Source: Escherichia phage Phi06_2974 B. From it: a DNA stretch of 5,624 bases. Within the stretch, counting starts at the first letter, position 1; each line of letters opens with the position of its first letter. The notes below the pieces were generated by a model that saw only the letters and a program-made list of their open reading frames with translations, was not told the DNA's origin and did not search any database. A program made the position numbers and the translations under genes. This document shows positions 1 to 3,641 of the stretch, piece after piece. The stretch lies in sequence record KM389307.1. One strand, given 5' to 3'.

Positions 1-80
1 TCTGATGCGCCGCGCGATAAATGCGCCCATTTCCGTGAGATAAATGGCACCGCTGCGGCGTTTCAATATTTGAAAAAGAA

Positions 81-662
81 TTACAATCCTACCGCGTCAT
101 CCTTCCTCTGACTATCTACCGGAAAATACCGGTAGAGCGTCGATAACCCCACCCCGTAGATAATGGCCAGTTGCTGGCGGGTATGCCCCTTAGCCAATAG
201 CCGCCCAATCTGTTCTCGCTCATGAGGCTTTAATGCGTTGGGCCTTCCACCTATGCGTCCCTGTGCTCTGGCTGCTGCTAACCCGGCCAATGTTCGTTCG
301 ACGATCAACTCACGTTCCATTTCCGCCAGTGCCGACATCACATGGAAAAAGAAACGCCCCATGGCAGTGCTGGTATCAATACTGTCTGTTAAAGAGCGGA
401 AGTGGGCACCGCGTTCATGTAACTCTGATATCAGTGCGATCAGGTTCTTAACGCTGCGCCCCAGCCTGTCCAGTTTCCACACGACCAGGGTGTCTCCGCT
501 ATTAACGCACTTTAAAGCGCGTTTCAGACCGGGGCGGCTGGCAACTTTTCCGCTCATACGGTCTTCAAAAATGCGGTCACAGTTTGCGCTTATGAGTGCA
601 TTACGCTGTAAATCGCTGTTCTGGTCGATTGTTGATACGCGGATATAACCAATGACGGCCAT
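81..662 (-). CDS. Serine recombinase, DNA invertase of the Hin/Gin/Cin/Pin (Din) family, 193 aa
   Basis: Translation from the ATG at 662-660 begins [23 protein letters not shown]... with the catalytic-serine motif (YIRVST), the conserved [15 protein letters not shown] and [32 protein letters not shown] blocks, and a C-terminal HTH region (LSTLYRYF). A strong SD (GAGGAGGAG, plus 668-676) sits 5 nt upstream. The ORF-track start at 731 is a TTG and would read through the crossover site; I reject that extension. Confidence 0.9.
575..640. promoter_or_regulatory. Predicted Fis-dependent recombinational enhancer (sis-like) inside the 5' end of the invertase gene
   Basis: In Hin/Gin/Cin systems the enhancer lies within the first ~150 bp of the invertase coding sequence, with two Fis sites about 48 bp apart. 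Here, in coding orientation, GTATCAACAATCGAC (plus ~624-638) and AAGCGCAAACTGTGA (plus ~578-592) occupy the equivalent positions, about 46 bp apart and about 105 bp from the left crossover centre. Assignment is by positional and sequence analogy to my recollection of the hin enhancer. Confidence 0.45.
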
Positions 663-689
663 CAATTCTCCTCCTCTATGTCGCGGTGG

Positions 690-720
690 GAGGATTTTTA
701 CAGATTTCGCTATGTGTAAC
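690..720 (-). promoter_or_regulatory. Possible weak sigma70 promoter for the invertase, adjacent to the left crossover site
   Basis: On the minus strand, GTTACA (-35-like) then a 15-nt spacer then TGtAAAAAT (extended -10-like) lie upstream of the invertase SD. Match to consensus is poor and spacing suboptimal. Confidence 0.2.
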
Positions 721-724
721 CGCT

Positions 725-750
725 TTTCCAAAAACCTTGGTTTGGGAGAA
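725..750. repeat. Left crossover site (hix/gix-like, 26 bp): TTTCCAAAAACC-TT-GGTTTGGGAGAA
   Basis: Two 12-bp half-sites ending in AAACC flank a TT core at 737-738. Positions 731-751 are a perfect 21-bp inverted repeat of 2559-2579. Half-sites resemble the Din-family consensus as I recall it (hix TTATCAAAAACC / TTCTTGAAAACC). Confidence 0.8.
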
Positions 751-1089
751 GCGGCTAAAAGGAATGTAGGGACAGGGGCGAATCAGATACCTGATATGGG
801 TAGCTTCACGCTTTCTGTTTCAGGTACTGGATATCAAAAATTACCATCAGGTTTTATTCTTCAGTGGGGCTCAATCGGCGCTCCAGGCATTGCACAGGAT
901 GTAGTAACCCATTTCCCGATTGCATTTCCAAACAGATGTCTGCGTGTTTTGGTCTCACAAGACTACACACCAGATAGCGGGGCTGTTGGTTATATTGCCT
1001 GTGCAGGTTTTAGTCCCGACCCGGTTAAATTTATATCCAGAGCCAGTACTCCTGGCCTCGGCGCTTCATTTTTAGCGTTAGGCTGTTAA
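751..1089 (+). CDS. Silent alternative tail-fiber C-terminal cassette (Hv'), no start codon of its own in this orientation
   Basis: The frame is open through the left crossover site, where it encodes F-S-K-N-L-G-L-G-E (724-750), matching F-L-Q-N-L-G-L-G-E in H. The variable-specific part runs 751-1089 with TAA at 1087-1089. It is followed 21 bp later by an SD and a tfa-like gene, mirroring the active H-tfa arrangement. Confidence 0.65.
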
Positions 1090-1110
1090 TTTAGCTATAT
1101 GGAGTGAAAA

Positions 1111-1551
1111 ATGAATTACATATATTCCGCGACTACAAACTCTTTCTATCCGCTGGAGATGAAAGAGGATTACACTCAAGCTGACTCATGGCCAGATGAT
1201 GCTGTTGAAGTTGATGAGCAAGTGTATATTGAGTTTTCCGGATTACCGCCGAAAGGAAAAATCCGTATCGCTGGAGAAAATGGTTTTCCTGCATGGTCTG
1301 AAATTCCACCACCAACACATGAGGAACAGATTGCTGCAGCCGAACTGGAAAAGCAGCAACTGATTAATCAGGCCAACGATTATATGAACAGTAAACAATG
1401 GGCTGGTAAAGCGGCTATTGGTCGTCTGAAAGGTGAGGAACTGGCGCAATATAATTTGTGGCTGGATTATCTGGACGCACTGGAGCTGGTCGATACTTCC
1501 GGTGCGCCAGATATTGAATGGCCTACGCCTCCGGCAGTTCAGGCCAGATGA
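1111..1551 (+). CDS. Tail fiber assembly protein (Tfa/gpG/U-like chaperone), alternative copy paired with the silent cassette
   Basis: ATG at 1111 preceded by GGAG (1101-1104). The 146-aa product has an acidic N-terminal half and the C-terminal motif APDIEWPTPP characteristic of Tfa chaperones. Position immediately downstream of a tail-fiber C-terminal cassette. Confidence 0.8.
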   Translation: MNYIYSATTNSFYPLEMKEDYTQADSWPDDAVEVDEQVYIEFSGLPPKGKIRIAGENGFPAWSEIPPPTHEEQIAAAELEKQQLINQANDYMNSKQWAGKAAIGRLKGEELAQYNLWLDYLDALELVDTSGAPDIEWPTPPAVQAR

Positions 1552-2116
1552 CATCCGGCGCGGTGCTGGTATCTGTTGCCGTCACCGCGTCAATGTAATC
1601 CAGCACAGCGTTAAGCCGGGTTGTTTCTGCCTGCGTCAGTTTCCGCCCGGCCTGTAATTTCAGCTGAATCAGACTAATGGAAGCCATTGCTGCATCAATC
1701 AGTGACTGGCGCTGTGCTTCTGCCGCTTCTACTGCGGCACTGTGTTGTGCCTCAGTATCTGTCACCCATTTCTCACCATCCCATTTATCATATGGCGTTA
1801 ACGGTGAAAGCGTGACATAACCGTTTTTGATGGCACCGATATAATCCACTGTAACAGCTGCGCCATTTTCGATTGAGTAAACAGTCTCATTGCGATGGTC
1901 CTCTTCATGGCTCCATCCCTTACCTGTAAATACAGCCACTTTTCCCGGAATGTTTTCGCCAGGGTCAATACCAGTGGAACAGGCGGGCATACTTACACCA
2001 GTATTAATATATTCATCAGACCAGCCCGTATATTCATACGTTACTGCATCATAATAAAAACAACGCATATCACCCGGCACTGTAGCCAGTCCATTTTCAT
2101 CAAAAACAGGTTTCAT
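1523..2116 (-). CDS. Tail fiber assembly protein (Tfa/gpG-like chaperone), copy expressed with the current H
   Basis: ATG (plus 2114-2116) overlaps the H stop as TAATG. The 197-aa product ends ...TAPDVIWPELPEA with the conserved Tfa C-terminal WP motif. Immediately downstream of H, as G follows H in P2. Confidence 0.85.
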   Translation of the reverse strand: MKPVFDENGLATVPGDMRCFYYDAVTYEYTGWSDEYINTGVSMPACSTGIDPGENIPGKVAVFTGKGWSHEEDHRNETVYSIENGAAVTVDYIGAIKNGYVTLSPLTPYDKWDGEKWVTDTEAQHSAAVEAAEAQRQSLIDAAMASISLIQLKLQAGRKLTQAETTRLNAVLDYIDAVTATDTSTAPDVIWPELPEA

Positions 2117-3060
2117 TATTTAGCCCTCACCAGAAAGTTAAATGCAATGTTACGTGGTCTGACGGCAATAAAATTAACACCATCTCCTACTGAGTTACTG
2201 GTGTACTGAAATCGAGAGAAACCTGGTTGGTGTGCTGATATTCCATCGTAATCAGCAATCGCATGGCCGGACCCTTCTGGATAATTACCGCCAAATTGCG
2301 ATAAAGCTGTTGCTGCCTGCCAGCTTAATAATGCTCGCCCACTGTCCGCCCCTCGCCCATCATCCCAGATACGAATGAAATCACCGCGGGCTTCAGGTAA
2401 TACCAGCGAAGGAAACACTTTTGCCAGCACAGGGTAATCAGAGGCAGAAAATTTCGCCCCGTTGAACTTCAAAAACACCATACTGGACCAGCTATCGATT
2501 ACAGTATTTGGCATTGCAGCGGACGGCCAGAAGAACGGAACGCCAATAGCTGGAGCACCTTCTCCCAAACCAAGGTTTTGAAGAAAGGCTGCCTTATCGG
2601 GAATATCCGCACCGTTCTGGTCTTTGGCCAGTTTCTCCGCCAGCTTGTTCAGCACTGTGGTCGCAAAGTTCGGATCGTTGCCAAGGGCATCAGCCAGCTC
2701 TTTCAGCGTATCCAGTGTTTCTGGGGCTGTACCTGCAAGCGCAGCAATCGCCCTCGCCACAAATTCTGTCGTCACCAGCTTTTTGCTGTTGTCATTAGCT
2801 GCAGGCGTGGGGGCTGTTGGCGTACCCGTGAATGTTGGGCTGGCCTTCGTCGCATACTGGGTATGCGGGTCGGCCGCTGCGATGTGTTTCGCGAGATCTG
2901 AACCGCCTTTTTCAACCTGCTGTTTCAGGTATGAAGTACGGCTGGCCAGCTGTTTAGCCTGACGGTTAGAAATTCCATCAGGCCCACCCAGTACGGGGTC
3001 GGAGACCTCAATCTGGTAGATGCCGTCTTCCCACTGCGGGGTTTCGGGTAGATTTGCCAT
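2116..3060 (-). CDS. Tail fiber protein (P2 gpH-like), 314 aa: constant N-terminal part plus currently joined variable C-terminus
   Basis: ATG at 3058-3060 with GGGAG about 9 nt upstream. Contains a Pro/Thr-rich linker (PTFTGTPTAPTPAA) and the motif LDTLKELADALGNDPNFATTVLNKLA, which matches the ALGNDPNFATT block I recall in P2 H and related fibres. Sits after baseplate genes J and I and before tfa. The stop overlaps the tfa start. Confidence 0.9.
   Translation of the reverse strand: MANLPETPQWEDGIYQIEVSDPVLGGPDGISNRQAKQLASRTSYLKQQVEKGGSDLAKHIAAADPHTQYATKASPTFTGTPTAPTPAANDNSKKLVTTEFVARAIAALAGTAPETLDTLKELADALGNDPNFATTVLNKLAEKLAKDQNGADIPDKAAFLQNLGLGEGAPAIGVPFFWPSAAMPNTVIDSWSSMVFLKFNGAKFSASDYPVLAKVFPSLVLPEARGDFIRIWDDGRGADSGRALLSWQAATALSQFGGNYPEGSGHAIADYDGISAHQPGFSRFQYTSNSVGDGVNFIAVRPRNIAFNFLVRAK
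2560..2585. repeat. Right crossover site (hix/gix-like, 26 bp): TTCTCCCAAACC-AA-GGTTTTGAAGAA, inside the H coding sequence
   Basis: Inverted copy of the left site with an AA core at 2572-2573 on the plus strand. On the minus strand it encodes residues F159-E167 (FLQNLGLGE) of H. Confidence 0.8.
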
Positions 3061-3062
3061 AA

Positions 3063-3641
3063 TTAACTGCTCCCGTGGTTATAGCTGCCGTCATAGTTGA
3101 CGGTGTTGTTGTAGCGAATGGCGGCAGACTGATACTCCAGGCTCGCCAGATGGCAGCGGGCCGGAGCAAAGGCAGCGAGCGTCTGGCGTAACAGAGCCGC
3201 CTGATCGTTAGTGATGGGCTGTTGAAGGATGACGCGATAGACCGCCCAGGCTTCCGCATCGCCGTGGACAAAAAGCCCGTTATAAGTGTGTTTGCCGTCG
3301 TATCCGATCTGGCCAGTGCCTTCAATCAGATCCACTTCGCCGAAGCCGAAACGGCGGATAATTTCCCGGATTGACCACGGCGTCCCTTTGTAGCGGTGCA
3401 ACTCGATAGCGGATTTGATAAGCGTGCGACGTACATCGTCTGACTCCGCCAGTTCCCAGCCGTCACCGAACAGCGAGAACTGTTCGCCCAGCCATGGCAG
3501 CGCAGAGCTGTCGACAATATCGACGAGGTAGACCATCAACACGCTCAGGTCGATGCTGTCCAGTCTTCCGGCCAGATTGCCCAGTGCCCTGAAGCTGATA
3601 TCACCCTCAAGTGCTGGCGGGAGTTTTAGCGTCTCAGCCAT
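3063..3641 (-). CDS. Tail/baseplate protein (P2 gpI-like), 192 aa
   Basis: Sits between the J-like and H-like genes as in P2. The likely true start is the ATG at 3639-3641 (GGGAG 6 nt upstream), overlapping the J stop by 8 nt; the ORF-track start at 3647 is a TTG two codons upstream. The P2 gpI call rests on gene order and approximate size. Confidence 0.8.
   Translation of the reverse strand: MAETLKLPPALEGDISFRALGNLAGRLDSIDLSVLMVYLVDIVDSSALPWLGEQFSLFGDGWELAESDDVRRTLIKSAIELHRYKGTPWSIREIIRRFGFGEVDLIEGTGQIGYDGKHTYNGLFVHGDAEAWAVYRVILQQPITNDQAALLRQTLAAFAPARCHLASLEYQSAAIRYNNTVNYDGSYNHGSS

Follow-up and report, generated by a model that had tools for sequence, protein, structure and literature searches.

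A probable Din-family tail-fibre inversion switch in a Mu-like transposable prophage of Escherichia coli

The exchange of tail-fibre tips by DNA inversion is not a new mechanism, having been textbook material since phage Mu, phage P1 and the e14 element of Escherichia coli (E. coli). In Mu/D108, a constant fibre part (Sc) is joined to either of two alternative parts (Sv or Sv′), each of which has its own chaperone (U or U′), and P7/P1 similarly combine a constant Sc with an alternative Sv and chaperones. The P segment of e14 is bounded by TTGGTTTGGGAGAAGG and its complement, and this 1797 bp segment has been found to invert experimentally, yielding chimeric fibre genes (PMC12529663, 2025). Here, we describe a locus of the same design in a 5,624-nucleotide stretch of Escherichia phage Phi06_2974 B (sequence record KM389307.1), the whole of which is referred to below as the window. 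We conclude, with a probability of roughly 0.9, that positions 725-750 and 2560-2585 of the window are the two sites of a Din-family (Hin/Gin/Cin/Pin-type) tail-fibre inversion switch, which belongs to a Mu-like transposable E. coli prophage. The switch is real and very likely functional. An initial annotation of the window, made from its letters, had put a crossover site for a recombinase within the coding region of the tail fibre, and support for this idea came from the adjoining invertase, the paired cassettes, the anatomy of the sites and the protein isoforms of relatives.

The two sites and the segment between them are as follows (positions are those of the window).

725-750, left (invertase-proximal) inversion site, 26 bp, TTTCCAAAAACC-TT-GGTTTGGGAGAA, with its core at 737-738.
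2560-2585, right (fibre-proximal) inversion site, 26 bp, reading TTCTTCAAAACC-TT-GGTTTGGGAGAA on the minus strand, with its core at 2572-2573.
739-2571, invertible segment, 1833 bp between the cores, holding two convergent cassettes that each comprise a fibre tip and an assembly chaperone.

The sites are mutually inverted, and each is made up of two 12 bp half-sites flanking the TT core. The inner half-sites are the same at both sites (TTCTCCCAAACC), whilst the outer ones differ (TTTCCAAAAACC on the left, TTCTTCAAAACC on the right), and the perfect inverted identity between the sites amounts to 21 bp (731-751 and 2559-2579), spanning the core and the inner halves; on all of these points our recomputation agrees with the initial annotation. 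A repeat finder stretches the repeat to 26 nucleotides at 92%. By our own arithmetic, the number of perfect 21 bp inverted repeats expected by chance in 5.6 kb is ~4e-6, and the palindromic centre AAACCNNGGTTT, for which shuffled sequences predict 0.19 occurrences, is present twice in the window, both times at the sites. A scan for this centre with up to one mismatch (≤1) revealed no third site in the window; a shufflon or Min-type multiple-inversion system, which we also considered, is ruled out, as the sites number only two. A consensus of TTCTCCCAAACC emerged from 24 distinct half-sites belonging to invertase-linked pairs of sites, and the three different half-sites of the window agree with it at 12, 10 and 8 of 12 positions. 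Within every invertase-linked pair compared, the cores were equal (TT/TT or TC/TC), and the same core in both sites is required for religation after a single rotation (PMC4513852). Both window sites retain the invariant AAACC-NN-GGTTT centre together with matching TT cores, and the left outer half-site is identical in the compared related prophages of other genera.

An alternative account of the 21 bp repeat would be that it is merely a conserved coding motif, NLGLGE, of fibre genes, and that the cassettes were built by ordinary homologous recombination. Indeed, NLGLxE and site-like DNA occur in fibre genes with no invertase detected nearby (related loci L019, L021, L049, L066, L081, and L083), and in hundreds of E. 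coli genomes the homology to the cassettes breaks off at the site, which shows that horizontal exchange, too, uses the motif as a junction. We nevertheless consider this account highly improbable, because the dyad-symmetric 26 bp element matches the experimentally defined cix, gix and e14 sites, the two copies are in inverted orientation with the invertase only 63 bp away, the second copy heads an open reading frame (ORF) that has no fibre N-terminus, and exact reciprocal isoforms exist in relatives. Furthermore, efficient RecA-dependent inversion needs a longer repeat than 21 bp.

The genes and control elements that a Din-family switch would require are arranged around the sites in the following manner.

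81-662, minus strand, serine DNA invertase of 193 aa (amino acids), with the Pfam domains Resolvase and HTH_7.
574-641, minus strand, putative recombinational (Fis) enhancer in the 5′ end of the invertase gene, a homologue of the P7 cin enhancer.
663-724, spacer of 62 bp between the invertase start and the left site, containing the invertase ribosome-binding site GGAGGAG.
736-1089, plus strand, alternative fibre tip, unfused at present, whose C-terminal domain is gp53-like (Pfam).
1111-1551, plus strand, tail-fibre assembly chaperone of the alternative tip, 146 aa, Caudo_TAP (Pfam).
1523-2116, minus strand, tail-fibre assembly chaperone of the active tip, 197 aa, Caudo_TAP (Pfam).
2116-2574, minus strand, variable C-terminal fibre part in the active position, residues 163-314, e14 StfE-like.
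2575-3060, minus strand, constant N-terminal fibre part, residues 1-162, outside the segment.

The invertase gene lies outside the segment and adjoins the left site, and its transcription is directed away from the segment. The fibre gene closes a minus-strand baseplate operon with the order V-W-J-I-H, and its stop codon overlaps the start of the 197 aa chaperone (TAATG). The active C-terminal part gives a weak match to a tail-collar domain and shares 39% identity with the variable part of e14 StfE, and a Pfam search with the 162 constant N-terminal residues gave no family. The alternative tip is without any N-terminal fibre part of its own. The two convergent chaperone genes have 29 bp in common at their 3′ ends (1523-1551), with no terminator between them, and an 18 bp inverted repeat (83%) at 1461-1478 and 1587-1604 reflects a conserved motif in the C-terminus of the chaperones (LDYLDA and LDYIDA).

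The right site is situated inside the fibre gene, where it codes for F-L-Q-N-L-G-L-G-E. Its core (2573-2572) forms positions 2-3 of Leu163 (CTT, 2574-2572) in the 314 aa minus-strand gene at 2116..3060, and the left core (737-738) forms positions 2-3 of Leu29 (CTT, 736-738) in the plus-strand ORF at 652..1089. Since the sites share the same codon phase within the N-L-G-L-G-E stretch, the constant N-terminus is joined in frame to either tip. When we inverted 738..2572 in silico, the 314 aa fibre was replaced by an uninterrupted fibre of 279 aa; N-L-G-L-G-E is present in both variants, and the junction of the constant part with the gp53-like tip reads CTTTCTTCAAAACCTTGGTTTGGGAGAAGCGGC. After inversion, the 146 aa chaperone would begin 21 nucleotides downstream of the 279 aa fibre, behind GGAG. 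The initial annotation had claimed that, in the active gene and the silent cassette alike, the core makes up the second and third letters of a Leu codon, that inversion fuses the N-terminus of the fibre protein (H) in frame to the alternative cassette to give 279 rather than 314 aa, and that the site imposes NLGLGE on both variants, and each of these claims holds upon recomputation.

Inversion at the proposed core gave neither a frameshift nor a premature stop, which is a weak test for placing the exchange point. Moving the breakpoints by 1 bp in either direction leaves the product unchanged and, given that any crossover inside the 21 bp identity yields the same protein, the frame test cannot place the exchange point. 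The proposed position of the core rests instead upon the dyad symmetry of the sites and their homology to experimentally mapped sites (P7 cix). In P7 cixL and cixR, the annotated crossover dinucleotides lie precisely at the middle two positions of the sites as we located them by pattern, which supports the assignment of the core in the window. The comparison with Mu-type and P1-type S junctions suggested by the initial annotation also turned out in its favour: the core has the same codon phase in D108/Mu and in P7/P1, and it occupies codon positions 2-3 in D108 S (QNVGLQE), P7 S (QYLGLRE) and e14 StfP (ENLGLGE). In all related loci that have a Din-like site in a fibre ORF (28/28), the core is likewise at positions 2-3, in each case of a Leu codon, and the junction peptide is x-(N/Y)-L-G-(L/F/I)-x-x, with NLGLGE the commonest form.

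Evidence that fibres of this kind occur in both states came from relatives. Proteins of 279 aa that are 94-95% identical to the predicted fusion over its whole length are found in E. coli and Enterobacter. In five loci (L006-L010), the window block 723-1804, which is 97% identical and holds the silent cassette, is flipped relative to the invertase and the constant part, and the flipped and constant blocks join across a 29 bp overlap that corresponds to the site, giving the 279 aa proteins. We then inverted ten relatives in silico at their inferred cores and searched for exact copies of eight of the predicted proteins. Five of the eight were found, residue for residue, in public databases.

L007, predicted inverted protein of 328 aa, found in 13 contigs.
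L016 (Pantoea stewartii), predicted protein of 283 aa, recorded from a different strain, DC283.
L037 (Lonsdalea), predicted protein of 385 aa, on record.
L001, predicted protein of 273 aa, on record.
L002 (phage KP12), predicted protein of 307 aa, on record.

Both sites of L001 are identical to those of the window, and both of its states are known at the level of the exact protein. These isoforms are the nearest that sequence databases come to demonstrating inversion at these sites, albeit for a relative and not for the allele of the window. When the in silico inverted L001 was compared with E. coli genomes, collinear prophages were recovered at 90-92% identity and 73-82% coverage, and the identical allele was not found amongst them. 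A related prophage with its fibre segment in the other arrangement was observed in E. coli JCH8249 as a separate, replicon-sized record of 40,540 bp (NZ_CP132021.1), which may be an excised or circular form of the phage, or an assembly product.

The cassettes are widely distributed. Of 5426 complete E. coli genomes, 2669 contain matches to parts of 1-3100 and, among the matches listed, most span 724-734 to 2576-2586, i.e. they stop at the sites. In a scan of one genome per species, the constant fibre part was also detected in Intestinirhabdus, Erwinia, Pantoea, Mixta, Limnobaculum, Pseudocitrobacter, Pectobacterium, Lonsdalea and others. The blocks of homology form a mosaic (723-1804 and 1288-2579), in which half-cassettes consisting of a site, a tip and a chaperone are shared separately with other prophages and phages; each block runs from the inversion site to a point within the conserved C-terminal portion of a chaperone gene. 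As the mosaic blocks end at the sites, the latter also serve as junctions for the horizontal exchange of fibre tips.

The invertase itself is intact. Its Pfam matches are strong (Resolvase, E = 2.6e-46; HTH_7, E = 1.6e-14), it matches Gin crystal structures at E = 5e-80, and it is 64% identical to Cin of P7, 66% to Gin of D108 and 67% to PinE of e14. All columns that are invariant among Cin, Gin, and PinE are kept, including R8, S10, D65, R66, and R69. In its DNA-binding domain, the invertase most resembles Hin (70.6 bits, versus 41.1 for Gin over the same stretch), with ~69% identity (34/49 aligned residues, counted by hand). The enhancer of P7 is annotated at nucleotides 19-86 of cin, and the homologous stretch of the window is 574-641. 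In the Hin enhancer, A/T tracts (ATTTA and TAATG) are located between the Fis sites, and the enhancer is ~100 bp from the recombination site (PMC3798978); stretch 574-641 contains both ATTTA and TAATG, and its near edge is ~100 bp from the centre of the left site. We also compared codons among 13 invertase genes that are mutually <95% identical. The proportion of identical codons at identical amino acids was 0.54 for codons 8-30 versus 0.42 for codons 31-180, with a peak of 0.70 in 10-codon windows within codons 1-35. Such raised synonymous conservation towards the 5′ end of the gene is consistent with an additional constraint acting on the DNA itself. The 62 bp spacer at 663-724 shows ~95% conservation across E. 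coli, Pantoea, Erwinia, and Limnobaculum, and may contain the invertase promoter or another control element. Inspection of 663-760 by eye revealed only a poor -35-like TTGGAA, in the outer half-site, without an acceptable -10, and we make no claim of autoregulation.

A number of observations weigh against a working switch in the window. The exact 314 aa fibre is on record in three short-read assemblies (runs SRR547791, SRR548037 and SRR548036), all of them in the orientation of the window, and an exact look-up in a collection of 15 billion proteins found neither the exact 279 aa fusion nor the reciprocal 180 aa ORF. Switching of this exact allele is undocumented, and only one orientation is on record. 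Three of the eight predicted inverted proteins of relatives were likewise not found by exact look-up. Some relatives have decayed: in Intestinirhabdus alba and Pseudocitrobacter cyperus (L014 and L022), the fibre-proximal site (~6476) has CA or CG in place of GG beside the core, and Candidatus Erwinia dacicola (L015) has lost the segment, retaining a single hybrid site (6476-6501) composed of both outer half-sites and a fibre of 171 aa. A promoter scan found no consensus sigma-70 promoter near the invertase start or the sites. Lastly, candidate Fis cores picked by the G..C rule (G..C-bounded 15-mers) are 49 or 51 bp apart, compared with 48 bp in Hin, and we consequently claim no defined Fis sites.

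The single recorded orientation, the lack of a consensus promoter upstream of the invertase, and the mutated sites or deleted segment of these three relatives would all be compatible with the main alternative, a frozen relic, i.e. a prophage that has Din-type sites and an invertase, yet in which the switch is inoperative and the fibre is fixed at 314 aa. We think that this is unlikely, given that the invertase ORF is intact with every family-invariant residue, that both sites keep the AAACC-NN-GGTTT centre and matching cores, and that L001, which has identical sites, is recorded in both states at the exact protein level. Furthermore, assemblies report only the majority orientation, so that three concordant contigs constitute weak evidence. 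Searches for the inverted junction are similarly limited in what they say. No record among complete E. coli genomes spans it (megablast), compared with eight records that span the native junction, and the H allele is rare in E. coli, so the missing record says little. There was also no exact match to the inverted junction in metagenome or viral contigs; a pattern for either orientation had none as well, meaning that the allele is absent from these data and the search is uninformative.

By homology to Hin and Gin, a functional Din-family switch would operate at this locus as follows. Dimers of the 193 aa serine invertase would bind each of the 26 bp sites, and the bound sites would meet at the enhancer, itself occupied by Fis, within the 5′ part of the invertase gene. 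Ser10 would then cut both strands at the central TT/AA, and a 180-degree rotation would be followed by religation. As both cores are TT in the same relative orientation, the overhangs would pair and the 1.8 kb segment would invert. Constant residues 1-162 would thereby be joined either to the StfE-like tip (314 aa, the present state) or to the gp53-like tip (279 aa), each with its own chaperone. The two orientations probably differ in host range, judging from the different domains of the tips (gp53-like versus StfE/collar-like), and the expected consequence would be a phage population with two receptor specificities, which would amount to bet-hedging in host range.

The element that carries the switch ends close to it, the switch being 80 bp from the prophage end. 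The terminus is at window position 3 (5′-TGATGCG...), homology between differently placed prophages stops at 2-3, and two GATAAATG motifs are found near the terminus, at 16-23 and 39-46. In the assembly that holds the window, the flank is E. coli relA (100% identity), and relatives are inserted in various other genes. A related prophage interrupts nrfA in E. coli AREA_C483; it has 5′-TG...CA-3′ ends, inverted GAGATAAATG motifs at both ends and a 5- or 6-bp target duplication (GTAAT or CGTAAT), and encodes a DDE transposase, a MuB-like ATPase and Mor. Based on the TG..CA ends, the target duplication, the transposase, MuB-like ATPase and Mor genes and the varied places of insertion, we conclude that the element is a Mu-like transposable phage.

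The left site is also crossed by an ORF on the plus strand (652..1089, 145 aa), which starts opposite the start codon of the invertase and runs into the gp53-like tip. It consists of a 29-residue leader from outside the segment followed by that tip, and has the same make-up as StfE2 of e14, a chimeric protein reported to block adsorption of phage T2 after inversion of the P segment (PMC12529663, 2025). We therefore considered the possibility that ORF 652..1089 is not silent, but is a superinfection-exclusion protein that protects the host and is toggled together with the fibre tip. Such a role, suggested by this analogy, is improbable; if true, the window would be in a defence-on state. RefSeq lists the L001 counterpart of this ORF among its annotated genes. 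In L007, the ATG at 652 is replaced by ATT, and inspection of the sequence by eye revealed no evident ribosome-binding site for ORF 652..1089.

As regards annotation, the locus is best described as an invertible fibre segment with two alternative proteins (314 and 279 aa), and the gp53-like ORF as not being a separate gene. Any prediction of host range for the prophage should weigh both tips, and assemblies of such loci may present the segment in either orientation. The point at which fibre tips can be exchanged, naturally or by engineering, is marked by the conserved in-frame NLGLxE junction. Beyond correct annotation, the importance of the locus is small.

How does the locus compare with the classical switches? 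Hin, in the H segment of Salmonella, likewise uses 26 bp sites, and its enhancer is ~100 bp from a site, within the invertase gene, as is the putative enhancer of the window. However, Hin flips a promoter and sits inside its own segment, whereas the window switch recodes a protein and its invertase is outside. In P7/P1, the 26 bp sites have TT as their core, placed in positions 2-3 of a CTT codon (peptide Q-Y-L-G-L-R-E), a phase equal to that of the window, and the enhancer is annotated in the 5′ part of the invertase gene, where the putative one of the window also lies; the constant and alternative fibre parts with chaperones are common to both. In contrast, cin of P1/P7 is transcribed towards the segment, with cixL overlapping its 3′ end, which is the opposite of the layout in the window, and the segment is 4 kb rather than 1.8 kb (invertase identity, 64%).

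Mu/D108 are transposable phages with the fibre segment and the invertase at the genome end, and with an invertase that is outside the segment and transcribed away from it, all as here; the combination of one constant part with two tips, each with a chaperone, is the same design. The S site of D108 is TTATCCAAAACG-TC-GGTTTACAGGAA, coding for I-Q-N-V-G-L-Q-E, with the core in positions 2-3 of GTC, and the constant part upstream of the junction is homologous between D108/Mu and the window (LAKDQNGADIPDKAAF; wider junction region, LAKDQNGADIPDKAAFLQNLGLGE). The differences include the core (TC in Mu/D108 versus TT in the window), the invertase (66% identity to Gin), and the length of the fibre (~500 aa in Mu/D108 versus 314 or 279 aa). 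In addition, the com/mom genes of Mu/D108 have no counterpart between invertase and phage end in the element of the window, and its genome organization differs in having divergent early (transposase) and late regions, an arrangement that we presume to be BcepMu-like.

The e14 element (NC_000913.3) has the same gene order as the window: jayE (J), ymfQ (I), stfP, tfaP, tfaE (minus), stfE (minus), and pinE. Its fibre-embedded site (CTCTCGAAAACC-TT-GGTTTGGGAGAA, peptide ENLGLGE) has the inner half-site, the TT core and NLGLGE in common with the window, and its 16 bp repeat, TTGGTTTGGGAGAAGG, matches the right site of the window in full and the left site at 15/16 positions. The two elements have the same pair of tips (gp53-like and StfE-like) and a similar segment size (1.8 kb). 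Nevertheless, the tips have diverged (27% identity for the gp53-like, 39% for the StfE-like), as has the invertase (67% to PinE), and MG1655 carries e14 in the opposite state to the window, in which the StfE-like tip is joined to the constant part. Furthermore, e14 is a decayed cryptic prophage whose stfE is annotated as a pseudogene, whilst the window has an intact tail module and invertase in a transposable phage. The locus is a hitherto undescribed Din-invertase fibre switch: its invertase is Hin-like, its P segment is e14-like, and the transposable prophage that houses both is intact.

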